NCBI RefSeq assembly: GCF_003668955.1
Contig: NZ_RAWO01000002.1
Span: forward strand, 215,605-279,604
Source of the DNA: Corallococcus sp. AB038B
GTDB lineage: Bacteria > Myxococcota > Myxococcia > Myxococcales > Myxococcaceae
Reading direction: 5' to 3'
Length of the DNA stretch: 64,000 nt
Positions 2,153-39,986 of the stretch are shown here, piece after piece (positions within the stretch are counted from its first letter, which is position 1; each line of letters begins with the position of its first letter). The position numbers and the translations under genes were made by a program. Below the pieces are notes generated by a model. That model worked only from the letters and a program-made list of their open reading frames with translations, ran no database searches and was not told the DNA's origin.

Positions 2153-2208
2153 TACTTTCTCGGGGCGCGGCCCAGGCTGACGCACACCTCGAGCAGGAGC
2201 ACTCCGTC

Positions 2209-3660: not shown

Positions 3661-3674
3661 CGGCGCCCCCGGAG

Positions 3675-5234
3675 CTACTCCGCCTCGCGGGCGAGCTGGA
3701 TGAGCGCGTCGGCCAGCGCGGCCATGTGTTCGGGCCGCGAGGCCGGATTGATGAAGACGGCCCGCAGGTACAGGTGGCCACTGGCGTGCCGGTAGCAGCT
3801 CACCGCGAACTTCCGGCTCTGCATCAGCCGTGACAGCAGCGCGTCGTTGCGTGCGTTCTCCCTTGCGAGCTCCTCGGGTGTCTCGCTGGCGGCCTTCGGG
3901 CGGAGGCGGAAGGCGAGCATGTTCATGGTCGGCGTGTCGGGGAAGAGCTCGAAGCAACCGCTCTTCTTCAGGCGCCGCGTGAAGTCCCGGGCGAGCGCGA
4001 AGAGGTGGTCCACGAGCCGGCCGTAGCCATCACGGCCGAAGTGGCGCAACAGCAGCCAGGCGCCCAGCGAGTTGAGTGCGCGCGAGCCGTCCAGCGTCAC
4101 CTCGCCCAGGTCGGACACCTCGCTCGTGACGAAGTAGTCCAGGCTCACCTTGCCCAGCAGCGTGAGCAGCCGCGCGTCGCGCACCAGCAGGCCGCCCAGT
4201 TGCGCGTTGAGGCCCAGCACCTTGTGGGGATCCAGCGTGACGGTGTCCGCGCCCTGGAGACCGTCGAGCAGGCCCCGGTGGCGCTGGGAGAAGAGCAGCA
4301 GGCTGCCGTGGGCGGCGTCCACGTGGACGAGCGCGCCGTGCTGATGAGCCAGCCGCATGCCCTCGCGCAATGGGTCGACGGCGCCCACTCCCGAGCTCCC
4401 CGCGGTCAGCACCACCACGGCGGGGAGCTGGCCCTGGCGCCGCGCCTCCACCAGCGCGGCCTCCAGGGCGATGGGACACAACCGGTCCTGGCCGTCGGTG
4501 GGAACGCGGTGCAGTCCCGCGTCTCCCAGCCCCAGCTGGCGGACGGCGGCGAAGATGCTGGGGTGCGAGGCCTCGGACGCGAAGACGCGCATCCCTCGGT
4601 GGCCCGTGCGGGACAGCGCCTCCACGAGTCCCAGCGCGTTGACGTCTGCCCCGGCGCGGCGCAGCGCTTCGTTGCGCAGGATGAGCAGCGCCTGGAAGTT
4701 GGATTGCGTCCCGCCGGACGTGAAGCAGCCTCCGGCCTGGGGGACGTCCGGAAACGCGAGGGACGTGAGCCAGCCGAGGACCTGTCGCTCGACGAACGTG
4801 CCCGAGCGCGCGGACGAGAAGGTGATGGGGTCCTGCGCCAGGGCGCGGATGAGCAGACCGCTGAAGACGGAGTAGTCCGTGGGCGGGACGTCCAGCTGCG
4901 CGAACCACGTGGGCGAGCGCTTGTCACGTCCGTGGGGCATCACGTGTTCGGCGACGTCCGCGAGGATGGCCTCGATGGGTTGCCCCTGCTCCGGCAGCGG
5001 CGCTTCGAAGGCCCTGGCGATGAGGCGGGCGGGGATAGGCGGGGGGACGGGGCTTCCGGCTGGGGCCCGCAGTCGCTGAAGCGCGAGGGCGACAAAGCCC
5101 TCCATGCGTGCGCGGACTTCGTCCTCGGGCAGGGCCTCGAAGGCGGCACGCAGGGCCGGGGGCAGCTCCGGGTAGGAGGGCTCGGTGACGTCGTCGTGGA
5201 TCATCGCGGCGGGGGTCACTCGTGTCGCACTCAA
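3675..5234 (-). CDS. PLP-dependent group II amino-acid decarboxylase (DABA/glutamate/aromatic decarboxylase family)
   Basis: 'TLDPHKVLG' PLP-lysine motif, 'TSGGTQSN' and overall fold II decarboxylase similarity. The track start TTG at 5234 overlaps the NRPS-PKS stop (TTGA); in-frame alternatives are GTG 5219 and ATG 5204. Last gene of the operon. Confidence 0.85.
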   Translation of the reverse strand: MSATRVTPAAMIHDDVTEPSYPELPPALRAAFEALPEDEVRARMEGFVALALQRLRAPAGSPVPPPIPARLIARAFEAPLPEQGQPIEAILADVAEHVMPHGRDKRSPTWFAQLDVPPTDYSVFSGLLIRALAQDPITFSSARSGTFVERQVLGWLTSLAFPDVPQAGGCFTSGGTQSNFQALLILRNEALRRAGADVNALGLVEALSRTGHRGMRVFASEASHPSIFAAVRQLGLGDAGLHRVPTDGQDRLCPIALEAALVEARRQGQLPAVVVLTAGSSGVGAVDPLREGMRLAHQHGALVHVDAAHGSLLLFSQRHRGLLDGLQGADTVTLDPHKVLGLNAQLGGLLVRDARLLTLLGKVSLDYFVTSEVSDLGEVTLDGSRALNSLGAWLLLRHFGRDGYGRLVDHLFALARDFTRRLKKSGCFELFPDTPTMNMLAFRLRPKAASETPEELARENARNDALLSRLMQSRKFAVSCYRHASGHLYLRAVFINPASRPEHMAALADALIQLAREAE

Positions 5235-8200
5235 GGCGTCTCTCCTCCCACGCGGGAAGGCGGGGATGGGGGCTCATCGGGTTGAACGGGGGCGGCGGGC
5301 AGGTGGGCTCGTGCAGGCGCGGCGTGCTCCAACAGCGGCGCGAGGACGCGCGCGAGCCCTTCCACCTGCGGGGGATGCAGCAGCGTGTAGTGGTCGCCAG
5401 GGACAGGGATGACGTCCAGGCGGGGAGTGAGTGCGTCCCAGCCGCGCGCGTCCGGATTGCCCGAGTCCGCGCCGACGATGAGCGTGAGGGGCACCGGAAG
5501 CGGAGTGAGCGTGTGCCTTGCGCGCGCGCGGACGTTGGCGGTGAAGACGCGGAGCAGGATGCGCAGCTCCTCCAGTCCGGACTCCGCGGAGAAGAGGCCG
5601 GTCCGCTGACCTTCGGCATACAGGTGGTGCAGCAGCGCCTCCGGTCCGCCCTCGATGACCTCCGCGGGAAGGCGGGGAGGCAGCCCGGCGAGGCGGGCCA
5701 GATCCAGCGCGAAGTGGAGGGCCAGCTCCGAGTCGTCATCCTCCATGGCGGCGTGGGCCGGGCTGGGCTCGATGAGGGCGAGCAGCTCCACGGCTTCACC
5801 GGCCTGATGGAGGTGGCGCGCCATCTCCGCCGCGATGACGGTGCCGAGCGACCAGCCTCCCAGTCGATAGGGGCCGTGAGGCTGGGCGGATCGGAGCGCC
5901 GCGACGTAGTGCCGGGCCATGGCGTCGATGGAGTCCAGTGGCGGAAGCCGGCCGTCGAGGCCCTGTGCCTGGAGTCCGTAGACGGGCTGCTCCGGGCCCA
6001 GCCGCCGCGCGAGGTCCGCGAAGGCGAGGACGTTGCCGCCCGCTGGGTGGACGCAGAAGAAGGGCGGGCGTGTCCCTCCGCGCTGGATGACGACGAGCGA
6101 GGACGTTGGGGCGGGCCCGCCATCGAGAACGGCCGCGAGCTGTTCGACAGTCGGGGCCTGGAAGAGCGCGGCGAGCGGGAGGCTCTTGCCGGTCCGCGCG
6201 CGGATGCTCGCGGCCATACGGACGGCGAGCAGTGAGTGGCCACCCGACGCGAAGAAGTCGTCGTGGATGCCGACCTGTTCCTTGTGGAGCAGCTCCGCCC
6301 AGAGCGTGGCCAGTAGCGCCTCCGTGGGAGTGCGCGGGGCGACGTAGTCGGAGGTGGCGCGGGCGTCTGGAGGCGGCAGTGCTCTGCGGTCGAGCTTTGC
6401 CTGGGCGGTGAGAGGCAAGGCGTCCAGGTGCACGAAGGCGGAGGGCACCATGTACTCGGGGAGGTGCCGCAGGAGGAAGGCGCGCAGGCTGGCGGCGGAG
6501 AGTGTGTCCGGAGCGGTCACGTAGGCGACGAGGCGCTTGTCGCCGGGGACATCCTCGCGAAGTAGGACTGCGGCCTGGTGCACGTCGGGGTGGATCAGCA
6601 GGGCGGCTTCGACTTCGGGCAACTCGATGCGGAAGCCGCGCAGCTTCACCTGGGAGTCGAGGCGGCCGAGGAACTCGAGCGAGCCGTCTGGGCGCCAGCG
6701 GGCCTTGTCACCGGTGCGGTAGAGGCGCGCGCCGGGCGTGGAGGAGAAGGCGTCAGGGAGGAAGCGCTCGGCGGTGAGGGCAGGCTGCTCGAGGTAGCCG
6801 CGCGCGAGGCCGTCACCGCCGATGAAGAGTTCACCGGGCAGGCCGACGGGAAGCGGAATGCCGTGGGCGTCGAGGATGTAGACGCGAGTATTGGCCAGGG
6901 GCTTTCCGATGGGCAGCGAGGCACCGGGGAACGTGGTGTCACGGAGGTGGAAGGCCGTGGCGAAGACGGTGGACTCGGTGGGGCCGTAGCCGTTGGTGAC
7001 GGGGAGTTGGAGGGAGTCGAGCACACGGCGCGCATGAGGAAGCGAGACGACGTCGCCTCCGGTGAGCAGGTGCTTGAGGGGGCGCAGGCCTTCGATGTGG
7101 CCGTCGACCATCTGGGAAAAGAGGCCGGAGGTGAGCCAGAGGGTGGTGATGGAGGCGCGTTGAATCAGTGCGCCCAGCTCTTCGAGGGATGGAGGAGAGG
7201 GTGGGGCGATGACGAGACGTGAGCCGTGAAGCAGGGCGCCCCAGATCTCGAAGGTTGAAGCATCGAAGGAGATGGGGGCGAGGAGCAGGAAGGACGCGTC
7301 GGGCCCGAAGTGAGTGAGGCCTGTGCTGAAGAGGGTGCGAAGGACGGCGCGATGAGGAGTGCCGACACCCTTGGGCCTGCCGGAGGATCCGGAGGTGAAG
7401 TCGATATACGCGAGGCTCAGTGGCAGGGCGGAAGGCGCAGGGGCATGGGTGGGCAGGCCCTCCAGCGCGACGTCCTCCAGCACCACGGTGCTCAAGGACT
7501 CGGGCAGCTTCGCCAGGAGTGCACGAGACGTGAGGAGGACACGCGGACGGGCGTCCTCCACCATGGCCGCGAGACGCTCGCGCGGATAGCTGGGATCCAA
7601 CGGCACATAGGCGCCACCGGCCTTGAGGATGGCGAGGAGGCCGACGACGAGCTCCAGCGAGCGGTCCAACGCGATGGCCACGCGCGAGTCGGTGGTGACG
7701 CCGAGACCGCGCAGGTGGTGGGCAAGGCGGTTGGCCTGCGCATCCAGCTGCCGGTAGGTGAGGCGCGCCACTCCGCACTCAAGTGCGAGTTTCTCGGGGA
7801 AGCGGGCGACGACCTGGGCGAAGACTTCAGGAAGGGTGGAGTCCTGCGGGTAGCTGGCCTCGGTGTTGTTCCACTCGACGAGCACCTGACGACGCTCGTC
7901 CTCTCCGAGCATGGAGACGGAGGCCAGAGGCGCGTCGAGCCGTGCCAGCAGTGCGTCCACGAGGAGGCCGAAGTGCGCGGCCATGCGCGAGGCGGTGCTC
8001 ACTTCGAAGAGGTCGGTGTTGAAGCCGAGTGCTCCCTGAAAGCCCTCGGGAGTGTCGGAGAGGATGAGCTGCAATTCGAACTTGGAGGTGGAGCCGTCCA
8101 CGTCCATGGGATGCAGTGAGAGGGCCTGCTCACGAATAGGCGCGGCGGGAGCGTTCTGCAGGGCGAAGAGGACCTGGAAGAGCGGGGCGCGGCTCATGTC

Positions 8201-11200
8201 GCGCGTGGGGTGAAGCTCTTCCACCAGCCGTTCGAAGGGGACGTCTTGATGGGCGTAGGCCCCCAGCGCCGTCTCCTTCACCTGTCGCAGCAAGTGAACG
8301 AACGACTTCTGCCCATCCACCTGGATGCGCAGTGCCAGCGTGTTGACGAAGAATCCGATGAGGCCTTCGAGCTCCCCGCGCTGACGTCCTGCGATGGGCG
8401 AGCCGACGGTGACGTCCTCCTGGCCGGAGTAGCGGGAGAGGAGCACCTGGAAGGAACCCAGCAGCAGCATGAAGGGCGTGACGCCCTCCTGGAGGCTCAG
8501 GGCCTTGAGCTGGCGGGACGTCTCGGCCGGCAGGACGACGGGCACCTGAGCGCCGTTGGAGGACTGCACGAGAGGCCGGGGCTTGTCCGTGGGCAGCTCC
8601 AGCGGAGCGGCGCCGGAGAGCTGCTGCTTCCAGTACTCCAGTTGCGCCTGGAGGACGTCACCTTGCAGCCACTGCCGCTGCCATACGGCGTAGTCGGCGT
8701 ACTGCACGGGCAGTGGCGGCAGCGGCGATGGCCTACCCTGGGAGAAGGCTTCGTAGAGGGCGGCCACTTCGCGCACCAGCACGCCCATGGACCAACCGTC
8801 GGAGACGATGTGGTGCAGCGTGAGCGCGAGCACGTGCTCGGTGGAGCCCAGGCGCCAGAGCTTCGCGCGGGCCAGGGGACCGGAGTCGAGCTGGAAGGGC
8901 CGTGAGGCTTCCTCGTGCAGCTGCGGCTCCAGGGGCAGGGCACCCGGCTCCACGACAACGAGCGGCAAATGCGCCGTGGCAGAGATGCGCTGCAGCGGCT
9001 GGCCTTCGTGCTGGACGAAGGTGGTGCGCAGGGCTTCGTGACGGCGCACCAACTCATCAAGCGCGCTGCGCAGGGAGGCTTCATCCAGGGGGCCCACCAG
9101 CCGCACGAAGGTGGGCATGTGGTAGGCGGCGCTCAGCGGTTGCAACTGGTCGATGAACCAGAGGCGCTGCTGGGCGAAGGAGAGGGGCAAGTCGCCGTCG
9201 CGCGGGACGGGACGCAGGGCGGGGGCCTGCGTGCGCGCGGCGGAGTCGATGCGCGCCGCGAGCGCGGCCACGGTGGGTGCTTCGAAGAGCGCTCGCACCG
9301 GCAGCTCCACTTCCAGCGCGGAACGGATCCGGGAGACGAGCTGGGTCGCAAGCAGCGAGTGGCCTCCCAGTTCGAAGAAGTGATCGTGAATTCCGATGCC
9401 TTCCCGGCCCAGGACCTTCTCCCAGAGAGAGACCAGCTGGGTCTCCAGCGCGTTGCGCGGGGGCTCGCGGGTCGCGGAGCCGCGTGGGGCTTCCGGTGCG
9501 GGCAGCGCCTTGCGGTCCACCTTGCCGTGGGCAGACAGCGGCAAGGCCTTCATCGCCACGAAGGCGGACGGCACCAGGTACTCCGGCAGCCGCTGGCGCA
9601 GGTGGTCTCGCAGCCGCGCGGTGTCCAGTTCCGGGGGCACGACGTAGGCCACCAGTCGCTTGTCTCCGGGGACGTCCTCGCGCACCAGCACGGTTGCCTC
9701 GGTGACGTCGGCGTGCTCGCGCAGCACCGCCTCCACTTCGCCCGGTTCGATGCGGAAGCCGCGCAGCTTCACCTGGAAGTCCATGCGCCCCAGGAACCTC
9801 AGCGTGCCGTCCTCGCTCCAGCACACGCGGTCCCCGGAGCGGTACAGCCGCTCGCCTGGGGACGCCGCGAAGGGATGCGGCACGAAGCGTTCCGCGGTGA
9901 GGGCTGGCCGCCCCAGGTAGCCCCGCGCCAGACCGTCACCGCCAATGTACAGCTCGCCTGGCACCCCCACCGGGACCGGCTGCATCGCCGCATCCAGCAC
10001 ATAGACCTGGGTGTTGGCGATGGGCCGGCCGATGGGCACGGAGCTGCCCACCGCGTCTCCGGGAGCCATCACGTGGCAGGTGGTGAAGGTCGTGCTCTCC
10101 GTGGGGCCGTAGCCGTTCACGAGGCCGCGCGACTGGGCCAGCCGCTCGCGAACCCGTGGCACGGGGAGCACATCGCCTCCGGCGAGGAGCTGCGCCACGG
10201 CCGCGAGGGCTTGGGGCTGCTCCTGCTGCATCTGGTCGAAGAGCGCCGCCGTCAGCCAGAGCACCGACACCCGATGCCGGAGCAGGGCCTGGCCCAGCTC
10301 CTCCAGCGACGGAACCGCCTGGGGAAAGAGCACCAACCGGCCGCCGTGCAACAGCGCACCCCAGATCTCCAGGGTCGACGCGTCGAACGCAAGCGGCGCG
10401 AGCTGCAACACGATCTCAGCGGGCCCCAGCTTCACGAAGCGCGAGCCGATCAACAGCCGCACCACGCCTCGGTGGGGAATGGCCACGCCCTTGGGCGTCC
10501 CCGTCGAACCCGACGTGTAGGTGACATACGCCAGCTGATCCGCACGGACGGGCGCGTGCGGCGCCTCCACCGGCTGACGTGCAATCCGTTCCCCGTCGGA
10601 GTCAAGGCACACCACCGGGCGCGAGGACTTCGGAAGCACCGGCGTCAGGGACTGCTGCGTGAGCACCGCCGCCACATCCGAATCCGCGAGCAGAAACGCC
10701 AACCGCTGGGGCGGGTAGGAAGGATCCAGCGGCACGTAGCAGCCACCGGCCTTGAGGATGCCCAGCAGTCCCACCACCAAATCCACGTTCCGGTGGAGAC
10801 AGACCCCGATGCGCGGCTCCGGACCCAGGCCCAGCGTCAGCAGGAAGCGCGCGAGCTGATTCGCACGCGCATCCAGCTGCCGATAGGTGAGCGTCGCCCC
10901 GGCTGCCTCGACGGCGACGGCGTCCGGAGTTCGCAGCGACTGTTCGTGGAAGAGCGAGTGGATGCTGGCGTCGCGTGGGTAGTCGGAAGCGGTGGTGTTC
11001 CACTCCACGAGCACCTGGCGCCGCTCGTCCTCTCTGAGCATGGAGACCGAGGCCAGGGGCGCGTCGGGCCGTGTCAGCAGCGCGTCCACGAGGCGGCCGA
11101 AGTGCGTGGCCATGCGCGAGGCGGTGCTCGCGTCGAATAGGTCGGTGTTGAAGGCGAGCGTGCCCCGGAAGCCCTCGGGGGTGTCGGAGAGGATGAGCTG

Positions 11201-20200: not shown

Positions 20201-23047
20201 CCGCGCGATGCTTCCACCAAGCGCGTTCGCATCCTCCATCACCAGCCAGCGCTGATCATCGAAGCGGGGGACGGGAGCGCCCGCGATGCGCTGCCACGTG
20301 GGCACCGCGCACTCGAGCGCGGGGGGGACGTCCTCGCGGGGGACCTCGGACACGGCGAAGGCCGGAAGCCGGGCACCTGGAACAGACGCGACCGCGAGCA
20401 GGTCGAAGCGCTCCCGCTGGAAGGGGTAGGGCGGCAGCGGAACGCGGCGGCGGGGCTCCTTGCCGTACAGCTTCGCCAGGTCGATGGATGCACCGGCCAG
20501 CCAGAGCCGCGCGGCGGTCTCCGTCAGGTGCAGGTGGGCGTCCTGTCCGTCGCGTGGGCGTGGCAGCGACGTGAGGGCGGTGGGGGGATTGCCCGGGGGC
20601 GCGCACTGCCGGACGAACGTTCCCAGGGCCTGGCCCGGACCGACTTCCAGATAGAGCCGCTCCGTGCTCCCGAGCAGCGTGGTCGCGGCCTGCGCGAAGC
20701 GGACGGGTTCGCGCAGGTGGCGCGCCCAGGTTCGTGGATCCGTGGCCTGCGCGGCGGTGATCCACGTCCCGGTCAGGCTGGAGACGTACGGCCGCTTCGG
20801 CGGCGACAGACGGACGCGCGAAAGCTCCTGGAGGAAGCCCTCCACCATCGGCGCCACGGCCTCCGAGTGGAACGCGTGCAGGGCGCGGACTCGCCGGGTG
20901 CTCACGTCCCTGGCGGCCAGCGTCGCCTCCAGCGCCTCCAATGCCTGGATGGGCCCAGCCACCACGACCAGCGCGGGTGCGTTCACCGCCGCGACGGAAA
21001 CCCCTGGTGGCAGCAGCGGCGCGAGTGCGTCCTCTGGCAGGGACACCGACAGCATGCCGCCGGGAGGCAGCGCATCCATGAGGCGCCCGCGCGCGGCCAC
21101 CAGCGCCAGCGCGTCCGGGAGCGAGAACACGCCCGCGAGGCACGCGGCCACGTACTCGCCCGTGCTGTGGCCGACCATGGCCTCCGGCTCCACGCCGAAC
21201 GAACGCCACAGCTGCGCGAGCGCGTACTCCACCGCGAACATCGCGGGCTGCGCGAAGGTCATCCGCTCCAGCAGCGCCTCCGCCTCATTCGGTGCCTGAT
21301 CCGGAAACAGCACGGAGCGCAGGTCCTGGCCCAGGTGCGGGGTCAGCGCGTCGCGGCACGCGTCCAGATGCTTGCGGAAGACGGGCTCCGCTTCGTACAG
21401 CGCGCGGCCCATGTCCACGTGGTGGCTGCCGTGGCCTGGGAAGAGGAACACCACGGGGCGGCGAGCGTTCACGCTCGAGCCCCCCAGGTGGCGCCGTGGA
21501 TCCGCCAGCGCGGCCCGCGCATCCTCCAGGTCCCGGCAGAGCAGCGCGCGCCGGTGCTCATGCGTGCGGCGGCCCCGCTGGAGCGTGGACGCGACGTCCG
21601 CCAGCTCCAGTCCCGGCGTGCGCTCCAGGTGCGCGGCGAGCCGGGACGTGGCCTCCTCCAGCGCCCGGGGCGTGCGCGCGGACAGCGGAAGCACGTGCCA
21701 CGCGCGCCGGGTTCCGGCGGCCTTCGCGCGCGGCGGCTCCTCCAGCACCACGTGGACGTTGGTGCCCCCCAGGCCGAACGAGCTGACCCCGGCCCGGCGC
21801 TTCACCGCCCCGTCCCACGGCCTGGGCTCGGCGGTGACGAAGAAGGGGCCGCCGTCGAAGTCGATGGAGGGGTTGGGCTGCTGGAAGTGGGGCGTGGGAG
21901 GGATGACCGCGTGCTTCAGGGCCAGCACCGTCTTGAGCAGCCCCGCCACGCCCGCGGCGGAGTCCAGGTGGCCGATGTTCGCCTTCACGGTGCCCAGCAC
22001 GCAGCGCCGCGTGCCCGAGCGCGCGCCACCGAAGGCCTGGTTGAGCGCGGCGACCTCCACCGGGTCGCCCAGGGCCGTCGCCGTGCCGTGCCCCTCTACG
22101 TACTGCACGTCCTCCGGCTCCACGCCCGCGACGCCCAGCGCCTCCGCGATGGCGGCCGCCTGGCCCTCCACGCTGGGCGCGGTGAAGCCCGCCTTGGCGG
22201 AGCCGTCGTTGTTGACGGCCGACCCCAGGATGACCGCGTGGACGGTGTCCCGGTCCCGCACCGCCTCCGACAGGCGCTTGAGCACCACCACGCCCACGCC
22301 CGAGCCGAAGATGGTGCCCTGCGAACGAGCGTCGTACGCGCGGCACAGCCCGTCCGGGGAGATGATCATCCCTGGCTGGTACGCGTACCCGGCCGCCTGC
22401 GGGAACGCCACGGAGACGCCGCCCGCGAGCGCCATCTCGCACTCGCCCGACAGGAGGCTCTGACAGGCCAGGTGCACCGCCACCAGCGCGCTGGAACAGC
22501 CCGTCTGCACGGTGGCGCTCGGCCCGCGCAGGCCCAGGCGGTGCGAGGTGCGTGTGGCGACGAAGTCCTTGTCGTTGGCGAGCGACAGGTTGTACAGGCC
22601 CACCGTCTGCAACAGCTCTGGACGCCGCAGGAGCGCCTGGAACAGGTACGAGCTGGTGCTGGTGCTCGCGAAGGCGGCGATGGCCTCGGGGAAGCGCTCC
22701 GGGTCGTAGCCGGCGTCCTCCAGGGCCTCCAGCGCCGTCTCCATGAAGACGCGCTGCTGCGGATCCAGCACCTCCGCCTCGCGCGGGCTGTAGCCGAAGT
22801 ACCCCGCGTCGAAGTGCGTGGGCCCGTCCAGTGGATACGCGGCGCGCACCCAGTCCGGCCGCTCGCGCTGGGCACGGGGCACACCGGCCTGCTCCAGGTC
22901 CGCCGCGGTCAGCTCGCGCCGGGAGTGCACGCCGCGCCGGAGGTTGTCCCAGAAGGCGTCGAGCGTGGGAGCGCCCGGAAAGCGTCCCGACATGCCGACG
23001 ATGGCGATGCGCTCCACCGTGTCCGCCGTCTCCTCAGACATCCGCAT
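5231..23047 (-). CDS. Hybrid PKS-NRPS megasynthetase (5938 aa): KS-AT-KR*-ACP, then four C-A-T modules, then TE
   Basis: KS has 'TGCSSALVA' Cys184, 'EGHGTAT' and 'NIGH'. AT has 'GHSTGEY' and the malonyl-type 'HAFH'. KR-like domain is degenerate (see findings). ACP 'LGGHSLLATQ'. Four C domains carry 'HHIVSDGWS', four A domains 'YTSGSTGxPKG...NxYGPTE...GELxIGG', four PCPs 'GGHSLLA'. C-terminal TE 'GGWSLGTVIA'. ATG at 23047 overlaps the upstream NRPS gene by 14 nt. Confidence 0.95.
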   Translation of the reverse strand: MRMSEETADTVERIAIVGMSGRFPGAPTLDAFWDNLRRGVHSRRELTAADLEQAGVPRAQRERPDWVRAAYPLDGPTHFDAGYFGYSPREAEVLDPQQRVFMETALEALEDAGYDPERFPEAIAAFASTSTSSYLFQALLRRPELLQTVGLYNLSLANDKDFVATRTSHRLGLRGPSATVQTGCSSALVAVHLACQSLLSGECEMALAGGVSVAFPQAAGYAYQPGMIISPDGLCRAYDARSQGTIFGSGVGVVVLKRLSEAVRDRDTVHAVILGSAVNNDGSAKAGFTAPSVEGQAAAIAEALGVAGVEPEDVQYVEGHGTATALGDPVEVAALNQAFGGARSGTRRCVLGTVKANIGHLDSAAGVAGLLKTVLALKHAVIPPTPHFQQPNPSIDFDGGPFFVTAEPRPWDGAVKRRAGVSSFGLGGTNVHVVLEEPPRAKAAGTRRAWHVLPLSARTPRALEEATSRLAAHLERTPGLELADVASTLQRGRRTHEHRRALLCRDLEDARAALADPRRHLGGSSVNARRPVVFLFPGHGSHHVDMGRALYEAEPVFRKHLDACRDALTPHLGQDLRSVLFPDQAPNEAEALLERMTFAQPAMFAVEYALAQLWRSFGVEPEAMVGHSTGEYVAACLAGVFSLPDALALVAARGRLMDALPPGGMLSVSLPEDALAPLLPPGVSVAAVNAPALVVVAGPIQALEALEATLAARDVSTRRVRALHAFHSEAVAPMVEGFLQELSRVRLSPPKRPYVSSLTGTWITAAQATDPRTWARHLREPVRFAQAATTLLGSTERLYLEVGPGQALGTFVRQCAPPGNPPTALTSLPRPRDGQDAHLHLTETAARLWLAGASIDLAKLYGKEPRRRVPLPPYPFQRERFDLLAVASVPGARLPAFAVSEVPREDVPPALECAVPTWQRIAGAPVPRFDDQRWLVMEDANALGGSIARLMEARGADVLALGLDATWAPLEERLAAGGGPDHVAFLWPLSPEEGSGAVDRVLHGLLELARRLGPAAAARPVTLAVITCGAQDVTGEEPLRAWQATASGVCRVLSQEYPGLRCRAIDVSPPRPEEGPRWAEQLVAELGAGAPAVVALRGPHRFTESFEPVVASRTAASPLRQSGVYLIMGDLEAGGLALAEALSTTARARLVLLTDTVPQASHLERLGDLERMGAQGVLLAPMGAGDPEPLLQGLLAAEARFGAIHGVFFLPQGTAGAVRQSLADATDEAWAPVFRSRVGVLGALAGALQGRAPDFVTVCSSLTAVVGGVGRGVLAAAHASMDTFAAQQNRGPGPRWYVVDLDAWREEVIPVWLGLLAASGQGGRWWISQGPPRAEEPDAGGNSGTAPDPASGSQDTGRHPRPPLATPYVAPRGDSERRVVELWQEMLGIDALGVDDDFFELGGHSLLATQVLARVRSAFAVELPLRAFFEAPTPAKLAERVDAATAAGAPANILPPLTPVPRDGQPLPLSFSQQSLWFLDQLHPGGSAYNMPSALRMEGRVDTAALEQAFTELVRRHEALRTTFHADGGAPLQRIHPPADFRLAVMDVSSHDAPEAEAHRLAAEEQLRPFDLAAGPLLRAVRIRLAEARHVLVVTMHHIVSDGWSLGVLVREMVALYQAFASGQPSLLAPLPVQYADHAAWQRAWLRGEALESRIRWWRQQLEGTPAFLTLPTDFPRPPVASFRGDAVPVALPRALSESLAALCQAEGVTPFMALLAGFQALLSRYAGQDDVSVGSAMAGRRFAEQEALIGFFVNTLVYRTRLHADPTFRELLARVRDTTLEAHAHQDLPFEKLVEALRPERDPSRSPLFQVNFTFQNMPMGTLEAPGLRFEPIPIEGGTGRFDLTLVLTDTPRGLTGTLEYASDLFRPETARRLVTHLHVLMEGALRSPHLRLSELPLLTDAERHELLVQWNTSDADFPRDASLHTLFEAQVRSTPDARAVVFETQHLTYRQLDARANQLAHHLRALGVGPEVIVGLCVERSVEGVVGMLAILKAGGAFLCLDPAHPTARLALMLEDSGLQVLLTQDALLDVLPLSSSCVPCCFDADAAAISRRPTTPPAVEVHAGNLAYVIYTSGSTGRPKGTLLAHRGLCNSVLAAIRAHELSSESRVLQFASPTFDAAILETFAPLLAGATLVLAPRERLLPDAPLRALLTEQEITAVTLTPSVLAQLTSENLASLRTVISAGEALSPEIARCWSEGRTLLNAYGPTEATVCASITPGPVHADAPGIGKPWPNTRLYVLDAHLRPVPVGVPGELFIGGVGLARGYLGRPDLTAGRFLPDPFGTEPGARMYRTGDRVRWRQKGDLEYLGRTDFQVKLRGFRIELGEVEAALQAHAAVLQAVALVREDAPGLPRLVAYVVANGDGPLDVAALRVFLQQRLPEYMVPATLVVLDALPLTSSGKVDRRALPSPELRASGAPGHVPPGTPTEERLAALWKPLLQVEQVGSEDHFFELGGHSLLATQLVSRIRADFGVELALQALFEAPTLAALARRLDAARPEDASRAPPLLPVPRTGALPLSFAQQRLWLIEQIEPGGTAYNIPTVLRIRGRLDRGALGRAFSGLVERHEALRTVFATQDGEPVQIIQPPTEFALPEVDLSDASDSERVRQCAEAETQRPFNLAEGPLLRALLLRVGAEEHVLVVTMHHIVSDGWSMALLVREVASLYAAFSQSRPSPLPPLSLQYADFAAWQRLWLQGDVLSRHLDFWRQQLSGAPALLELPTDRPRPAVQSSRGAWVPFHLPQPLTSSLLDFCQQQGATPFMALLALWQLLLSRYSGQLDISVGAPIAGRTRSETEGLIGFFVNTLVLRSHVEPRSSFRQLLAQVRATTLSAFEHQHLPFEKLVEELQPQRSLRHSPLFQVMFTLRNTPDAAIQVEGGASALELSPVESDVVAAKFDLNLSLAETPEGLAGEILYRTDLFDAATITRMGEHLRTLTETALAAPDAPVGDLSLLSAGERAQVMEGFNATEDAFVAPCPLHTLIEEQAARHPERPAVACAGEVLTYGALDTRANQLAWRLRSLGVRPETRVGLCLERSVDMVVALLGVWKAGGAYVPLEPSQPAQRLRALVEEIAAPVVVTASRHAEAFTSLAAHVVRMDTDAQVLAAQPREAPVHGATARSLAYVLFTSGSTGRPKGVAVEHAQLFQYVRAATERLRLEECASFALLSTFAADLGNTVLFPALCTGGLLHVLPQELASSPAEVAAYFQRHAVDCMKIVPSHLAALLTAAEPRHILPRKKLVLGGESSSPALLEQLRALAPDCELFNHYGPTETTVGVIAGPVEVRPQAPVPLGQALAYTRLYVLDERLRPVPVGVPGELFIGGAQVTRGYLGRPELTAERYLPDVHSPVPGARMYRSGDRVRWLPDGRVEFIGRADFQVKVRGFRVEPGEVTAALSEHPAVREAWVVAREDMPGDTRLVAYVVSAAEPVSAGELRAFLQERLPAYMVPAAFVYLEAMPLTSNGKLDRKALPGPEETTREATFIAPRTPTEERLAALWAGLLRTERISVEEDFFALGGHSLLATQVVSRVRQTFEVELPVRALFEAPTVAALAARIDSAARTQAPALRPVPRDGDPPLSFAQQRLWFIDQLQPLSAAYHMPTFVRLVGPLDEASLRRALDELVRRHEALRTTFVQHEGQPLQRIAATAQLPLVVVEPGALPLEPQLHEEASRPFQLDAGPLARAKLWRLGSTEHVLALTLHHIVSDGWSMGVLVREVAALYEAFSQGRPSPLPPLPVQYADYAVWQRQWLQGDVLQAQLDYWKQQLSGAAPLELPTDKPRPPVQSSNGAQVPVVLPAEASSRIKALGLQEGVTPFMLLLSAFQVLLSRYSGQQDVTVGSPIAGRQRGELEDLIGFFVNTLVLRARVAPDLSFRALLAQVKETALGAYAHQDVPFERLVEELHPTRDMSRAPLFQVLFSLQGVPGTEPLQSQALSLHPLEADTATSKFELQLILSDTPEGFRGTLAFNTDLFDASTASRMATHFGRLVDALLTRPDAPLASVSMLREDERRQVLVEWNTTASDYPRDASIHSLFHEQSLRTPDAVAVEAAGATLTYRQLDARANQLARFLLTLGLGPEPRIGVCLHRNVDLVVGLLGILKAGGCYVPLDPSYPPQRLAFLLADSDVAAVLTQQSLTPVLPKSSRPVVCLDSDGERIARQPVEAPHAPVRADQLAYVTYTSGSTGTPKGVAIPHRGVVRLLIGSRFVKLGPAEIVLQLAPLAFDASTLEIWGALLHGGRLVLFPQAVPSLEELGQALLRHRVSVLWLTAALFDQMQQEQPQALAAVAQLLAGGDVLPVPRVRERLAQSRGLVNGYGPTESTTFTTCHVMAPGDAVGSSVPIGRPIANTQVYVLDAAMQPVPVGVPGELYIGGDGLARGYLGRPALTAERFVPHPFAASPGERLYRSGDRVCWSEDGTLRFLGRMDFQVKLRGFRIEPGEVEAVLREHADVTEATVLVREDVPGDKRLVAYVVPPELDTARLRDHLRQRLPEYLVPSAFVAMKALPLSAHGKVDRKALPAPEAPRGSATREPPRNALETQLVSLWEKVLGREGIGIHDHFFELGGHSLLATQLVSRIRSALEVELPVRALFEAPTVAALAARIDSAARTQAPALRPVPRDGDLPLSFAQQRLWFIDQLQPLSAAYHMPTFVRLVGPLDEASLRSALDELVRRHEALRTTFVQHEGQPLQRISATAHLPLVVVEPGALPLEPQLHEEASRPFQLDSGPLARAKLWRLGSTEHVLALTLHHIVSDGWSMGVLVREVAALYEAFSQGRPSPLPPLPVQYADYAVWQRQWLQGDVLQAQLEYWKQQLSGAAPLELPTDKPRPLVQSSNGAQVPVVLPAETSRQLKALSLQEGVTPFMLLLGSFQVLLSRYSGQEDVTVGSPIAGRQRGELEGLIGFFVNTLALRIQVDGQKSFVHLLRQVKETALGAYAHQDVPFERLVEELHPTRDMSRAPLFQVLFALQNAPAAPIREQALSLHPMDVDGSTSKFELQLILSDTPEGFQGALGFNTDLFEVSTASRMAAHFGLLVDALLARLDAPLASVSMLGEDERRQVLVEWNNTEASYPQDSTLPEVFAQVVARFPEKLALECGVARLTYRQLDAQANRLAHHLRGLGVTTDSRVAIALDRSLELVVGLLAILKAGGAYVPLDPSYPRERLAAMVEDARPRVLLTSRALLAKLPESLSTVVLEDVALEGLPTHAPAPSALPLSLAYIDFTSGSSGRPKGVGTPHRAVLRTLFSTGLTHFGPDASFLLLAPISFDASTFEIWGALLHGSRLVIAPPSPPSLEELGALIQRASITTLWLTSGLFSQMVDGHIEGLRPLKHLLTGGDVVSLPHARRVLDSLQLPVTNGYGPTESTVFATAFHLRDTTFPGASLPIGKPLANTRVYILDAHGIPLPVGLPGELFIGGDGLARGYLEQPALTAERFLPDAFSSTPGARLYRTGDKARWRPDGSLEFLGRLDSQVKLRGFRIELPEVEAALLIHPDVHQAAVLLREDVPGDKRLVAYVTAPDTLSAASLRAFLLRHLPEYMVPSAFVHLDALPLTAQAKLDRRALPPPDARATSDYVAPRTPTEALLATLWAELLHKEQVGIHDDFFASGGHSLLAVRMAASIRARTGKSLPLAALFQAPTVEQLAAVLDGGPAPTSSLVVIQRGGTRPPFFCVHPAGGNVLAFADLARRLGPEQPVYGLQAQGLDGRLPPLDSIDAMARHYVAALRSAQPHGPYRLGGWSLGTVIAAEMARHLHQAGEAVELLALIEPSPAHAAMEDDDSELALHFALDLARLAGLPPRLPAEVIEGGPEALLHHLYAEGQRTGLFSAESGLEELRILLRVFTANVRARARHTLTPLPVPLTLIVGADSGNPDARGWDALTPRLDVIPVPGDHYTLLHPPQVEGLARVLAPLLEHAAPARAHLPAAPVQPDEPPSPPSRVGGETP
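5234..6103 (-). other. Type I thioesterase (TE) release domain (aa ~5649-5938)
   Basis: 'GGWSLGTVIAAE' GxSxG nucleophile elbow, C-terminal 290 aa, downstream 'GDHYTLL' His region. Confidence 0.7.
6128..9202 (-). other. NRPS module 4 (C-A-T; aa ~4616-5640), A-domain code D-A-F-W-L-G-G-V (Val/Ile-like)
   Basis: 'FDASTFEIW', 'TTLWLTSGLF', 'LLTGGD', 'NGYGPTESTV'. Confidence 0.55.
7948..9307 (-). repeat. Intragenic direct repeat copy A (PCP3 C-terminus + C4 domain)
   Basis: aa 4581-4841 are nearly identical to aa 3537-3797, and similarity continues to aa ~5034. The same duplication shows in the out-of-frame shadow ORFs 8497-9084 versus 11590-12216 and 8210-8905 versus 11342-12030. Confidence 0.8.
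9263..12346 (-). other. NRPS module 3 (C-A-T; aa ~3568-4595), A-domain code D-A-L-W-L-G-G-T (Val-like)
   Basis: 'FDASTLEIW', 'VLWLTAALF', 'LLAGGD', 'NGYGPTESTT'. Confidence 0.55.
11080..12439 (-). repeat. Intragenic direct repeat copy B (PCP2 C-terminus + C3 domain)
   Basis: Partner of copy A. Offset is exactly 3132 bp (1044 codons), one module length. Confidence 0.8.
12398..15505 (-). other. NRPS module 2 (C-A-T; aa ~2515-3550), A-domain code D-L-T-K-V-G-H-V (Asp-like)
   Basis: A4 motif region 'STFAADLGNTV' has a 2-aa insertion, but the code matches the canonical Asp code DLTKVGHI. 'NHYGPTETTV'. Confidence 0.55.
15563..18652 (-). other. NRPS module 1 (C-A-T; aa ~1466-2495), A-domain code D-A-L-T-I-A-A-V (aromatic-like)
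   Basis: Stachelhaus positions read by aligning to GrsA motifs A4 'FDAAILETF' through A5 'NAYGPTEATV'. Confidence 0.55.
18728..23047 (-). other. PKS module KS-AT-KR*-ACP (approximate boundaries; aa 1-1440)
   Basis: Residue counting of the translated ORF: KS aa ~13-436, AT ~531-830, KR-like ~1100-1300, ACP Ser ~1405. Boundaries +/- 30 bp. Confidence 0.7.
19178..19270 (-). other. Degenerate KR active-site segment ('GVGRGVLAAAHASMDTFA' in place of 'GQxNYAAANAFLDALA')
   Basis: Alignment of aa 1260-1290 to the canonical KR motif: catalytic Tyr becomes Leu, Asn becomes His. The NADPH-binding Gly motif is also atypical ('MGDLEAGGLALA'). Confidence 0.5.
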
Positions 23048-26000
23048 CCCCGTCCAGCTCCAGGTCCGCGTCGTCGTCCGAGTCCCGCGCGGGTGCGGCC
23101 ACCGTCTTGCGAGCGAAGGCCTGTCGCCGGCGAGACCGGTCGCGTCCGGACTTCGCCCCGCTGTCGGATCCGCCGCCCTGCGCCAGGCGTTCCGCCAGGG
23201 CCCGGACCGTGGAGTGCTGGAAGAGCACCGTCAGCGGCAGCTCCACGCCCAGCTCCGCGCGCAGCCGCTGGTGCAGCCGCAGCGCGAGCAGCGAGTTGCC
23301 GCCCAGCTCGAAGAACGGATCATCCAGGCCCACGCGCTCCACCTGGAGCACGTCGCTCCAGAGCCGGGCCAGTTGCTCCTCCCGCTCCGTGCGCGGAGCC
23401 TCGAACGTTCGCCCCGATTCCAGCTGACCCGCAGTGGGTGGCGGAAGCGCGCGCACGTCCAGCTTGCCGTTGGCGGTGAGGGGGAACGCGGGCACGGAGA
23501 CGAAGGCGGAGGGCACCATGTGCGGCGGGAGCCGCTCCAGGAGGAACGCGTGCAGCGCCGTCGCGGTGGGTGGTTGTCCCGCCGTGGCCGGGACGAGCCA
23601 CGCGACGAGCCGCTGGCCCCCCGCGGGCGTGTCCTGGATGAGCACGGCGGCCTCTTCCACCGAGGCGTGCTGGCGGAGCGCCGCCTCGATTTCCCCCAGC
23701 TCGATGCGGAAGCCCCGCAGCTTCACCTGTCCATCGAGCCGGCCCAGGAACTCCAGCTCCCCGTCCTGCCGCCAGCGCACGCGGTCTCCCGTGCGGTAGA
23801 GGCGCGCGCCCGGCTCGGACGCGTACGGATCCGGCACGAAGCGCTCGGCCGTGGTGCCCGGCAGGTTCAGGTAACCCCGCGCGAGGCCCACGCCGCCCAC
23901 GCACAGCTCTCCGGGGACTCCCACTGGCACCGGCGACAGCCGCGCGTCCAGCACGTACACGCGCACATTGGGGATGGGGCGGCCCAGCGGCGGCGCGCGG
24001 CCCTCCGGCCGGACCTCCGTCGCGGTGGCTGTCACCGTCACCTCCGTGGGCCCGTAACCGTTGATGAAGCGGCGGCCCTCGCCCCAGCGCGACACCAGCT
24101 CCGCGGTGCATGCCTCGCCACCGGAGAAGACGGTGCGCAGCGAGGGCAGGCCCGTGGCGTCGGTGGCCGCGAGCGCAGTGGGCGTGGCGTTGAGCACGGT
24201 GATGGCCTGTTGCTTCAGCAGCTGGTGCAGCGGCTCGCCGGGCATCAGTCGCTCCACCGGCGCCAGGCACAAGGTGCCGCCGGCCGTGAGGGTGGCGAAG
24301 ATCTCCTCCACGGACACATCGAAGCCGGGATTGGAGAACTGGAGCACGCGCGAGGCCGGGCCCAGCTCGCTGACGCGCGCCTCGTGCACCACCAGGTTGC
24401 AGGCCGCGCGGTGCGTGGCCACGACGCCCTTGGGCTGGCCCGTGGAGCCAGAGGTGTAGATGACGTACGCGGGGCCGTCCGGCAGGGGCGCTCCAGGGGG
24501 CGCCCGCGAGGTGTCCGCATCCGGCACCCCATCCTCGAAGCACACCGTGCGCGCGCCCGGAGCGGAGGGCAGTCCCGCGAGCAGGGTCCGGTGGGCCAGC
24601 AGCACCTTCACGGCGGAGTCCTGGAGCATGAAGGCCAGCCGCGCCGCGGGATAGGTGGGATCCAACGGGACATAGGCACCGCCCGCCTTGAGCGTCGCGA
24701 GCATGCCCACCACCATGTCGAACGAGCGCGCGGCGCACAGCCCCACGTACGCCTCCGGCCCCACGCCCAACCCGCGCAGGTGCCAGGCCCACTGGTTGGC
24801 GCGCGCATCCAGCTGCCGGTAGCTCAGCGATTGGCCCTCGAAGGTGAGCGCGGGCGCGTAGGGCGTGCGGTGCGCCTGGGCTTCGAAGAGGGTGTGCAGA
24901 CCGTCCTCTTGGGGGTAGGGCGCGGAAGTGCCGCTCCACGCCCCCAGCAACTGTTCGCGCTCGTTTGGGGTGAGCAGGGGCAGCCGAGACAGGCGCTCGT
25001 GCGGCGTGGCCAGTGCTCCCTCCAGAAGGCGGATCAGGTGCGCCAACATCCGGCGGACGGTGCCGGGTTCGAACAGGTCCGTGGGGTACTCCGCGGTGAG
25101 GCGCAGTCCCTGGGGCAGGTCCTCGGCGATGAGCGTCAGGTCGAACTGGGCGGAAGCCGTGTCCACCGGACGCGCCTCCAGTTGAAGGCCCGGCACCTCC
25201 AGGGGCGGCAGCGGTGCGTTCTGGAGGACGAACATCGCCTGGAAGAGGGGCGCGCGGCTCGGGTCGCGACCGGGCTTGAGGGCGTCCACCAGCCGCTCGA
25301 AGGGAAGCTCCTCGCGAGCGAAGGCATCGAGCGCCACCGGCTGGAGACGCGCCAGCAGCTCCCGGAAGGACGGGGCACCTGAAAGGTCCGTCCGCAGGAC
25401 GACCGTGTTGACGAACAGGCCGATGAGCCCCTCCAGCTCCGCGCGGGGGCGGTTGGCCACGGGCGTTCCGACGGCGAGGTCCTCCTGACCGGTGTAGCGG
25501 TGGAGCAGGGTCTGGAACACCGCCAGCAGGGTGACGAACAGCGTGCGGCCTTCCTTGCGGGCGAACGCCTTGAGGTCCGCGGTGAGCGCGGTGGGCAGTT
25601 CCACCGCTTCGCGCGCGCCGCGAGTGCCCAGCACCGCCGGACGCGGCTTGTCCGTGGGCAGCTCCAGCAACGCGTGGGGGTCGATGCGCTCGCGCCACCA
25701 GGCGAGCCGTGCATCCGCCTCTTCGCCCTGCTGGGCCCGACGCTGCCAGCTGGCGTAGTCGCCGTACTGCAGCGGAAGCGGCGGCAGCTCGGGAGCCTTG
25801 CCCTCCTGGAAGGCCGCGTAGAGCGCCGTCAACTCGCGGACGACGACGCCCATGGACCAGGCGTCTGACACCCCGTGGTGCATGGCGAAGAGGAGCAGGT
25901 GCTCGCGCGCGGACAGCTGGAAGAGGCGCGCCCGGAACAGCGGACCCCGTTCCAGGTCGAAGGGCTCACGGGCCACCTCCGCGACGCGCTGGACGGCCCG

Positions 26001-26378
26001 GGCCTCCCGTTCTGATTGAGGAAGCGCCTGCAGGTCCTCCAGGGGGAGTGCCGCCTCCAGCGTGGGTGCGACGACCTGCACGGGCCGCCCGTCCGCCAGA
26101 GAGAAGGTGGTGCGCAGCGCCTCATGGCGGATCACCAGCGCCTGGAGCGCGCGCTGGAGCACCGGCGCCTGGAGCTCGCCCAAAAGCCGCACGGCCACCG
26201 GCATGTTCAGCGCCGAGCCCCCGGGGCTCCACTGTTCGAGGAACCACATCCGTTCCTGCGCGAAGGAGAGCGGAGCGCGCCTGGGGGCCGCGACCTTCTC
26301 CTGGAGGAGCTTCGCCAGCAGGGCCCGCTTGTCGTCCGAGGGTGACGTCATGGTTTCCATCATCGCCCTGGAGGGCAT
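23034..26378 (-). CDS. NRPS loading module: N-terminal (starter-type) C domain, A domain, PCP, acidic C-terminal docking tail
   Basis: C 'MHHGVSDAWS'; A 'YTSGSTGQPKG', 'NGYGPTE', 'GELCVGG'; PCP 'LGGNSLLAL'. C-terminus 'DSDDDADLELDGDADV'. Stop TGA 23034-23036 lies 14 nt inside the next gene. Alternative in-frame ATGs at codons 6, 7 and 10. A-domain code D-V-E-N-F-G-G-V. Confidence 0.9.
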   Translation of the reverse strand: MPSRAMMETMTSPSDDKRALLAKLLQEKVAAPRRAPLSFAQERMWFLEQWSPGGSALNMPVAVRLLGELQAPVLQRALQALVIRHEALRTTFSLADGRPVQVVAPTLEAALPLEDLQALPQSEREARAVQRVAEVAREPFDLERGPLFRARLFQLSAREHLLLFAMHHGVSDAWSMGVVVRELTALYAAFQEGKAPELPPLPLQYGDYASWQRRAQQGEEADARLAWWRERIDPHALLELPTDKPRPAVLGTRGAREAVELPTALTADLKAFARKEGRTLFVTLLAVFQTLLHRYTGQEDLAVGTPVANRPRAELEGLIGLFVNTVVLRTDLSGAPSFRELLARLQPVALDAFAREELPFERLVDALKPGRDPSRAPLFQAMFVLQNAPLPPLEVPGLQLEARPVDTASAQFDLTLIAEDLPQGLRLTAEYPTDLFEPGTVRRMLAHLIRLLEGALATPHERLSRLPLLTPNEREQLLGAWSGTSAPYPQEDGLHTLFEAQAHRTPYAPALTFEGQSLSYRQLDARANQWAWHLRGLGVGPEAYVGLCAARSFDMVVGMLATLKAGGAYVPLDPTYPAARLAFMLQDSAVKVLLAHRTLLAGLPSAPGARTVCFEDGVPDADTSRAPPGAPLPDGPAYVIYTSGSTGQPKGVVATHRAACNLVVHEARVSELGPASRVLQFSNPGFDVSVEEIFATLTAGGTLCLAPVERLMPGEPLHQLLKQQAITVLNATPTALAATDATGLPSLRTVFSGGEACTAELVSRWGEGRRFINGYGPTEVTVTATATEVRPEGRAPPLGRPIPNVRVYVLDARLSPVPVGVPGELCVGGVGLARGYLNLPGTTAERFVPDPYASEPGARLYRTGDRVRWRQDGELEFLGRLDGQVKLRGFRIELGEIEAALRQHASVEEAAVLIQDTPAGGQRLVAWLVPATAGQPPTATALHAFLLERLPPHMVPSAFVSVPAFPLTANGKLDVRALPPPTAGQLESGRTFEAPRTEREEQLARLWSDVLQVERVGLDDPFFELGGNSLLALRLHQRLRAELGVELPLTVLFQHSTVRALAERLAQGGGSDSGAKSGRDRSRRRQAFARKTVAAPARDSDDDADLELDGDADV

Positions 26379-39098: not shown

Positions 39099-39986
<888 letters not shown>

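Follow-up and report, generated by a model that had tools for sequence, protein, structure and literature searches.

A 64,000-nt stretch of the genome of Corallococcus sp. AB038B (genome GC, 69%; contig NZ_RAWO01000002.1, positions 215,605–279,604; hereafter, the window) encodes a hybrid nonribosomal peptide synthetase (NRPS)-polyketide synthase (PKS) assembly line in two genes, g1 and g2, followed by g3, a gene for a pyridoxal phosphate (PLP)-dependent decarboxylase, and by a convergent DAO-family flavoenzyme gene on the opposite strand. The predicted four-gene assembly line is real, intact, and so far uncharacterised, and it probably represents a functional biosynthetic island restricted to Corallococcus (window ~2149–26394) that works along the lines set out below. 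Its most unusual feature is the neighbouring flavoenzyme, which is of the Orf1 type and was overlooked in the initial annotation. The product is likely a pentapeptide that contains one β-keto C2 unit and bears, on a primary amine, a formimidoyl or iminoacetyl group derived from glycine. We tentatively raise the possibility that this is the first nonribosomal peptide-polyketide family carrying a glycine-derived formamidine or carboxyformamidine (or a derived imidazole) installed by an Orf1/Fms14-type N-O-S-bridge flavoenzyme. Taken as a whole, the observations of the initial annotation were confirmed, and its interpretation was partly supported.

In the proposed pathway, the module of g1, composed of condensation (C), adenylation (A), and peptidyl carrier protein (PCP) domains, would load an amino acid, X1, and its C domain (C1) would cap X1 at the N-terminus with an acyl or aminoacyl donor acting in trans. 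The ketosynthase (KS), acyltransferase (AT), and acyl carrier protein (ACP) domains of g2 would extend X1 by one malonate, a dead ketoreductase (KR) would leave this C2 unit as a β-ketone, and four LCL-type C-A-PCP modules would add Phe-like, Asp, Val, and Val/Ile residues, all L, before a thioesterase (TE) would release X1-(CO-CH2-CO)-Phe-Asp-Val-Val. The Orf1-like enzyme would most likely oxidise glycine and form an amidine by moving a C1-N (formimidoyl) or C2-N (iminoacetyl) unit onto a primary amine, either in the product or in one of its precursors, and the decarboxylase would act on a free amino acid to give a building block or an amine partner.

The best match of the flavoenzyme among solved structures was N-formimidoyl fortimicin A synthase Orf1 (PDB 7XQA/8GRI; 352 bits, E 4e-104, 39% identity), with a full-length alignment (residues 7–498 of 504 against 13–509 of 512). 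ThiO-type glycine oxidases reached at most 60 bits with alignments that ended at about residue 400, and a C-terminal extension of ~110 aa, missing in the glycine oxidase ThiO, is present in the window protein; the protein is an Orf1/formimidoyl-synthase homologue and not a generic amino-acid oxidase. In Orf1, glycine is oxidised at the FAD site (R342 and R368), an oximinoacetate adduct is held on Cys281 via an N-O-S bridge with the participation of E426, F316, and T298, and the substrate amine attacks this adduct to give an N-formimidoyl or N-iminoacetyl product (Wang et al., PMC10156733). E312 and E313 position the acceptor, E312 also promotes decarboxylation, and an E312A mutant gives mainly the N-iminoacetyl product; the acceptors named are unhindered terminal CH2-NH2 groups (PMC10156733). 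The window protein keeps the glycine-oxidation site (FAD motif, R342, and R368), with GNGVLG, GNRP, and GTYRDG conserved, and C281, T298, N299, F316, R342, R368, and E426 are identical to those of Orf1. Nine key residues were checked, and the only one neither kept nor conservatively replaced is Glu312, which is Ser (Glu313 is Asp). At the second site, the window protein and its C. llansteffanensis counterpart both have the Orf1 residues C281, E426, F316, and T298/N299. The protein is predicted to be a glycine-dependent N-formimidoyl or N-iminoacetyl synthase. The window protein thus shares full-length homology, the C-terminal extension, and most key site residues with Orf1 (from BD-12, a streptothricin-type cluster) and Fms14, whereas the genomic context differs, namely a myxobacterial NRPS-PKS island here and an actinomycete aminoglycoside-type cluster for Orf1.

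The flavoenzyme gene is also conserved more strongly than g1 and g3. Its protein is 96.5% identical to those of C. caeni and C. exercitus and 93% identical to that of C. llansteffanensis (92–93 and 82–83%, respectively, for g1 and g3), and its dN/dS of 0.12–0.16 is at the level of the housekeeping gene selA. Beyond Corallococcus, Orf1-like genes adjoin NRPS genes in approximately 10 of 80 metagenome loci, with at least two other architectures. None of the ten contigs concerned (L131, L132, L138, L148, L156, L158, L159, L162, L166, and L168) carries a g3-like decarboxylase. The A-domain codes DVLKVGSVLK and DSHVIGGV-K recur on them, and an A domain of L156 (DMENVVAVTK) resembles that of g1. The closest metagenomic relatives of the Orf1-like protein (46–52% identity) had uninformative neighbours.

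Comparison with C. llansteffanensis delimits the island. The gene order ODP, kinase, VOC, DAO, g3, g2, g1, and SelA is common to the window, C. caeni, and C. exercitus. The corresponding backbone of C. llansteffanensis consists of ODP, the kinase, three extra genes, VOC, and SelA, with VOC and SelA adjacent, and the DAO-g3-g2-g1 block lies on the far side of ODP, flanked by ODP and a 480-aa hypothetical gene, with a TPR-SLT gene close by. By blastn, window positions 2149–4199 match one C. llansteffanensis locus (L008) and 25900–26394 match another (L002). Locus L002 also contains the empty site, where the VOC (to 2145) and SelA (from 26620) homologies come within ~15 nt of each other. Because the DAO-family gene has changed place together with the synthetase genes, it is part of the cluster; the kinase, VOC, and ODP genes lie outside. 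The left flank does hold the ODP, Ser/Thr kinase, VOC, and DAO-family genes, in keeping with the initial annotation, whose treatment of the last as a border gene is not upheld. Some 225 bp (26395–26619) separate the island end from the SelA homology; they have no counterpart in C. llansteffanensis and probably hold the promoter region of g1 and/or selA.

Orthologues with at least 81% identity were found only in some Corallococcus, namely C. exiguus, C. caeni, C. carmarthensis, C. exercitus, C. llansteffanensis, and AB strains, and the reading frames are intact in the three species examined (C. caeni, C. exercitus, and C. llansteffanensis). In C. exercitus SDU142 (CP102577.1), g2 encodes 8239 aa and has extra modules, one of them of Gln type (DAQDLGVVDK), as judged from the gene outside a 4.7-kb middle stretch; this gene being longer by modules, the family would make peptides of different lengths in sister species.

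Pfam and motif analyses returned exactly the domain order first annotated, C-A-PCP in g1, KS-AT-KR-ACP-(C-A-PCP)x4-TE in g2, and a decarboxylase in g3 (5 C, 5 A, 5 PCP, and 1 ACP domains in total), on three co-directional and overlapping genes. Genes g1 and g2 overlap by 14 nt (ATGCGGATGTCTGA), and at the g2/g3 junction the TTG start of g3 overlaps the stop codon of g2 (TTGA), so that the group II decarboxylase (PF00282) is translationally coupled, as first claimed. The GC content at third codon positions of the three genes (0.88–0.91) shows the codon-position pattern of real genes, the modules are collinear, and the core motifs of the C, A, and PCP domains are kept (HHxxxD(G/A), A3–A10, and GGxS, respectively), with every carrier serine in place. 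The g1 protein sequence is identical to RKI01309.1. The true start of g1 is likely Met10 (nt 26351), the position used by all orthologues (MTSPSDDKR...), the longest reading frame beginning 27 nt upstream (26378); GenBank holds versions of 1114 and 1105 aa for AB038B. In agreement with the initial annotation, no epimerization (E) domain, type II TE, or phosphopantetheinyl transferase (PPTase) was found among the scanned open reading frames of the window, nor any MbtH motif in its six-frame scan.

The initial annotation had called C1 a starter C domain of the lipo-initiation type, and this assignment is contradicted by its scores against solved structures. C1 does sit at the N-terminus of the first module, a position it shares with the C domains of CDA PS1, RzmA, and SrfAA, but it differs from them in clade: it scored 355 bits against Txo2 and 258 bits against the LCL domain of TycC6, with Txo1 also high, versus 61 bits against CDA C1 (4JN3), 55 bits against RzmA (7C1H), and 128 bits against SrfAA. 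The ranking of solved structures was nearly equal for C1 and the internal domain C3, and C1 is 48–51% identical to C2–C5. Its nearest relatives are the C domains of C-A(Ser)-PCP proteins from Archangium minus and C. coralloides (60 and 57% identity, respectively), and the alignment runs from the first residues, docking helix included. These proteins are encoded downstream of two PKS genes and upstream of a KS-AT-KR-ACP protein that is 60 and 55% identical, respectively, to the N-terminal part of g2, and both the N-terminal docking helix of g1 (DDKRALLAKLLQEK) and its acidic C-terminal tail are conserved with these post-PKS homologues. Its sequence marks C1 as a domain of the elongation type, from a PKS-to-NRPS interface whose upstream PKS has been lost, and places it outside the lipo-initiation clade. 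It keeps the His-His pair and the Asp of the core motif (HHGVSDA; HHAVSDG in C. llansteffanensis), and its dN/dS (0.18–0.28) is comparable to that of C3 (0.23–0.26). Since C1 is under purifying selection, it probably N-caps X1, using an acyl or aminoacyl donor supplied in trans; the domain is probably still in use, but the block does not encode its donor.

The same features bear on a classical lipopeptide line, in which C1 would carry out lipo-initiation with a fatty acyl-CoA or acyl-ACP, the decarboxylase would be the sole tailoring enzyme, and the DAO-family gene would be unrelated. The N-terminal position of C1, its retained catalytic His and Asp, and its constraint agree with such a line, and N-capping would be sensible because a free α-amine beside a β-ketoacyl thioester would be prone to self-cyclise. 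This model is nevertheless rather unlikely, as C1 groups with the LCL elongation domains, the block contains no fatty acyl-AMP ligase, acyl-CoA ligase, or ACP to serve it, and the DAO-family gene, which is conserved more than g1 and g3, moves with the synthetases. Given the type of C1 and the membership of the DAO-family gene, the N-acylated small lipopeptide first proposed is one of several possibilities only. Another source of the N-cap could be a second locus: the docking helix of g1 may accept a polyketide from a paralogous PKS-NRPS cluster, yielding a polyketide-capped peptide from two loci. The match of the g1 N-terminus to the post-PKS C-A-PCP proteins of A. minus and C. coralloides, the 57–60% identity of the C domains, and the wide occurrence of paralogous proteins in Corallococcus speak for this scheme. 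It is decidedly improbable, however, because the presence of the paralogous cluster in AB038B itself has to be assumed, the docking residues differ at several positions, cross-cluster priming is rare, and the helix could be a relic.

The PKS module of g2 has an intact KS (motifs TGCSS, HGTAT, and NIGH) and an AT with GHSTG and HAFH motifs, the latter of the malonyl type, as annotated. The dN/dS was 0.06–0.33 for every segment in comparisons with C. caeni and C. exercitus and up to 0.33 with C. llansteffanensis, with the exception of the degenerate KR (KR0), which reached 0.47. Values were lowest in the KS among all domains (0.06–0.13), and, when the most distant species was compared, no named domain was under less constraint than KR0 (0.20–0.47). 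As the KS is the most constrained domain, the KS-AT block is regarded as a working extension module and not as a degenerate insertion. A trans-AT or degenerate insertion, the case that the initial annotation had named as its own possible refutation, disagrees with the cis-AT, the intact Cys/His/His, and the low dN/dS of the KS.

The predicted inactivity of the KR is likewise borne out by its motifs: GDLEAGG stands where the NADPH motif GGLGRxG is expected, the catalytic Tyr is replaced by Leu (GVLAAAH), and there are two deletions relative to homologues, so that the features of an active KR are wanting. Loss of the Tyr is common to the nearest PKS homologues from Archangium and C. coralloides, the degenerate Rossmann motif and the two deletions are extra losses of the window protein, and both GGLGRMG and the Tyr are retained in more remote homologues. 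Because the KR has neither the NADPH motif nor the catalytic Tyr, the C2 unit should stay a β-ketone. At the ends of althiomycin and jamaicamide, an aminoacyl-PCP is extended with malonate by a KS-AT-ACP module to an unreduced γ-amino-β-ketoacyl unit that forms a pyrrolinone. Their unit is terminal and cyclises on release, whereas that of the window line is internal and followed by four NRPS modules.

An alternative use of the ketone would be the formation of an imidazole. C1 would be unused, the α-amine derived from X1 would be formimidoylated, and the formamidine nitrogen would condense with the ketone to a 4,5-disubstituted imidazole; the cyclisation of an α-amino ketone and a formamidine to an imidazole is standard chemistry. 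This scheme has the merit of connecting the conserved dead KR with the Orf1-type enzyme, yet we consider it very doubtful because C1 is constrained to the same degree as working C domains, an α-branched amine is more hindered than the known acceptors, and the decarboxylase is left without a role.

For the NRPS modules, Stachelhaus codes were read by alignment to a GrsA-PheA fragment, the numbering of which reproduces the known code DAWTIAAICK. The codes agreed with the residues first annotated (X, aromatic-like, Asp, Val, and Val/Ile), all C domains are of the LCL type, and an E domain is absent from the line. The predicted core product is X1-(β-keto C2)-Phe-like-Asp-Val-Val/Ile, all L and released by the TE. 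The A1 code, DVENFGGVTK, also occurs in C. caeni, C. exercitus, C. carmarthensis, and C. exiguus, and its Glu239 and Asn278 give a hint that X1 may be a basic residue. Modules 5 and 6 (window 6098–12367) are, on sequence grounds, a recent tandem duplication with A codes that have already diverged: C4 and C5 are 89% identical at the protein level, and the DNA repeats at 8328–8900 and 11460–12032 are 93–95% identical with a spacing of 3132 nt.

The decarboxylase encoded by g3 scored 165 bits against PF00282 (Pyridoxal_deC; cut-off 27) and has intact catalytic motifs, with the PLP-binding Lys in DPHK and the cofactor-binding Asp in HVDAAH. The nearest NCBIfam models were diaminobutyrate (DABA) decarboxylase (181 bits, cut-off 900) and PanP (172 bits, cut-off 606), and no substrate-defined equivalog among DABA, Asp/PanP, Lys/DesA, Glu, His, and Tyr decarboxylases was reached. 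Its best solved structure was 4RIT, followed by the diaminobutyrate-pathway chains 8ZPI and 2QMA, with the DesA-type 5O5C lower. PLP chemistry needs a free α-amino acid, which the finished peptide does not offer, so the enzyme presumably acts on a free amino acid. Action on the finished peptide was rejected on the same reasoning, the residues of the predicted product having no free α-amine together with their own α-carboxylate. The gene adjoins the TE in five Corallococcus species. Its relatives outside Corallococcus are at most 58% identical and lie in non-NRPS contexts, and the neighbourhoods of homologues at 45–58% identity gave no inferable substrate. These homologues adjoin fatty-acid-desaturase-like genes, belong to a hydrazine-type cluster, or are fused and sit by a FeeM-like gene. 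Genes of the fatty-acid-desaturase family recur by the nearest non-Corallococcus relatives of g3 and by one Orf1-like gene (L086, L009, L088, and L094), and L088 looks hydrazine-type, with a Lys/Orn N-oxygenase, a cupin-MetRS fusion, two decarboxylases, and a short DAO-family gene.

Another scheme has a different release mode, in which a diamine made by the decarboxylase (from Dab, Orn, or Lys) would capture the peptidyl-TE by aminolysis, and the Orf1-like enzyme would convert its distal CH2-NH2 group into a terminal formamidine or carboxyformamidine. The nearest named families of g3 are diamine-forming (the DABA model, 8ZPI and 2QMA, and DesA-type enzymes), the known Orf1 acceptors are of just this CH2-NH2 kind (PMC10156733), and a Corallococcus strain ends myxovalargin with agmatine derived by a decarboxylase (PMC9853869). 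The myxovalargin synthetase of Corallococcus coralloides, in which the agmatine comes from arginine, thus has in common with the window line an NRPS pathway with an amino-acid decarboxylase, but the amine is added there by a terminal C domain and a type I TE is absent (PMC9853869), whereas the window line combines a canonical TE with a group II decarboxylase. Since, in addition, the family scores of g3 fall far below the cut-offs and the decarboxylase and Orf1-like genes were not found together outside Corallococcus in any of 80 genome loci or 80 metagenome loci, we regard amine release as improbable.

Several observations weigh against a functional island of the proposed kind. The island has no known product, and a PPTase and a transporter are absent from it. 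The core motif of C1 is altered (HHGVSDA), and no acyl-activating enzyme or carrier protein for C1 is encoded in the block. The A1 code has no assigned residue, and its position 239 is Glu in five other sequences checked and Val in C. llansteffanensis (DVVNFGGVTK), a difference that weakens the idea of a basic X1, which is kept only as a hint. Regarding the flavoenzyme, the known substrates of Orf1 and Fms14 are aminoglycoside-type molecules and not peptides (PMC10156733). The acceptor-positioning Glu312 is Ser in the window protein, so that a different product or acceptor is possible, and neither the decarboxylase nor the Orf1-like protein has its closest non-Corallococcus relatives beside NRPS genes. 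In the extreme, the cluster would be silent or decaying and make no product, as the altered C1 motif, the degenerate KR, and a block devoid of PPTase, transporter, and regulator might suggest. Such decay is hardly credible in view of reading frames that are intact over ~24 kb in all the species examined, dN/dS values well below 1, the survival of the block through relocation, and the gain of modules in C. exercitus. A functional, Corallococcus-restricted island thus remains the reading we prefer.

A characterised counterpart was not found in the literature searched on Corallococcus NRPS-PKS lines, lipopeptides, decarboxylases, and amidines or on formimidoyl groups in nonribosomal peptides, in line with the orphan status first suggested, and megablast against plasmids returned only short generic NRPS matches. 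As far as titles and abstracts show, coralinone (a single corA gene), the corallorazines, corramycin, and myxovalargin belong to other loci or architectures. The closest relatives of the line itself are the apparently uncharacterised A. minus (L090) and C. coralloides (L091) clusters, in which a C-A-PCP and KS-AT-KR-ACP gene pair is homologous to g1 and the N-terminal part of g2 (identities of 57–60% for the C domain, 68–73% for the KS, and 55–60% for the whole PKS module). The overlapping junction, both docking tails, and the loss of the KR Tyr to Leu or Val are shared with the window line. At least two upstream PKS modules, a Ser-type A domain (DVWHVSLVDK), and a retained KR NADPH motif are found only in the A. 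minus and C. coralloides lines, and no decarboxylase or Orf1-like gene was present in their fetched flanks. These clusters represent a larger PKS-PKS-[C-A(Ser)-PCP]-[KS-AT-KR-ACP] family, a paralogue of g1 together with the N-terminal portion of g2; the next genes are a 10,891-aa gene in Archangium and an MFS transporter and a penicillin amidase in C. coralloides. Paralogous proteins of the KS-AT-KR-ACP type are widespread in Corallococcus.

Myxobacteria commonly harbour orphan NRPS-PKS clusters, and the assembly line alone would therefore be unremarkable. To our knowledge, Orf1-type amidine-adding flavoenzymes have so far been documented only on aminoglycoside-type antibiotics. N-Formimidoylation changes the charge of a molecule and shields amines from modifying enzymes, imipenem and dactimicin being the classic cases. 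A natural amidinated peptide, if the prediction is true, would bring this chemistry to a new scaffold, and the approximately ten metagenomic Orf1-like/NRPS loci would in that case point to a broader class of amidinated nonribosomal peptides that is still unexplored. The conserved dead KR would leave a reactive β-keto amide by a possibly basic residue, reminiscent of ketone-type protease inhibitors. The locus also offers an evolutionary snapshot, in which a C domain with its docking helix appears stranded at the start of a line after the loss of its PKS partner and is still under selection, sister species differ by duplicated and inserted modules, and the block as a whole has moved to another site within the genus. 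The coordinates of the features are listed in the table.

Table. Features of the island, with positions in the window
Feature	Position	Strand	Basis or remark
Mobile four-gene block, extent	2149..26394	.	blastn vs C. llansteffanensis
Orf1/Fms14-like FAD enzyme, 483 aa (Met22 of long ORF 2146-3660)	2209..3660	+	PF01266
g3: group II PLP-dependent amino-acid decarboxylase, 519 aa, TTG start	3675..5234	-	PF00282
g2: PKS-NRPS, 5938 aa, KS-AT-KR0-ACP-(C-A-PCP)x4-TE	5231..23047	-	Pfam, motifs
Type I thioesterase (g2 aa 5662-5901), GWSLG ... GDH	5345..6064	-	PF00975, 104 bits
Module 6, C5-A5-PCP5, code DAFWLGGVFK (Val/Ile)	6098..9232	-	
Module 5, C4-A4-PCP4, code DALWLGGTFK (Val)	9233..12367	-	
Module 4, C3-A3-PCP3, code DLTKVGHVGK (Asp), C3 LCL type	12368..15535	-	
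Module 3, C2-A2-PCP2, code DALTIAAVCK (Phe-like/aromatic)	15548..18685	-	
ACP (g2 aa 1377-1441), LGGHSL	18725..18919	-	PF00550
Degenerate KR (g2 aa 1123-1305), predicted inactive	19133..19681	-	PF08659, only 58 bits
cis-AT (g2 aa 533-817), malonyl-CoA type	20597..21451	-	PF00698, 178 bits
KS and KS-AT linker (g2 aa 12-499), Cys184/His/His intact	21551..23014	-	PF00109, PF02801, PF16197
g1: C-A-PCP initiation module, 1114 aa, N- and C-terminal docking tails	23034..26378	-	Pfam
A1, code DVENFGGVTK	23463..24887	-	Resembles Orn(1) code DMENLGLINK, no clean match
C1: LCL-type condensation domain, motif HHGVSDA (g1 aa 35-478)	24945..26276	-	

Beyond the island, no further biosynthetic genes were found at 26.5–64 kb of the window, a region that holds only housekeeping or unrelated genes (SelA, HNH, ParA, DnaJ-HTH, an OPT transporter, a sigma factor, TgpA/MoxR, and TPR proteins). 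The island is bordered by the selenocysteine synthase (SelA) gene at 26543–28036, followed by HNH, ParA-like, and DnaJ-HTH genes; ARAGORN detected zero tRNA genes in the window, and hence no tRNA-Sec lies there. A group of unrelated genes on the reverse strand at 36563–45906 encodes an OPT oligopeptide transporter, a sigma-70 factor, a TgpA-type transglutaminase, a MoxR AAA ATPase, a STAS protein, and an SLT transglycosylase.

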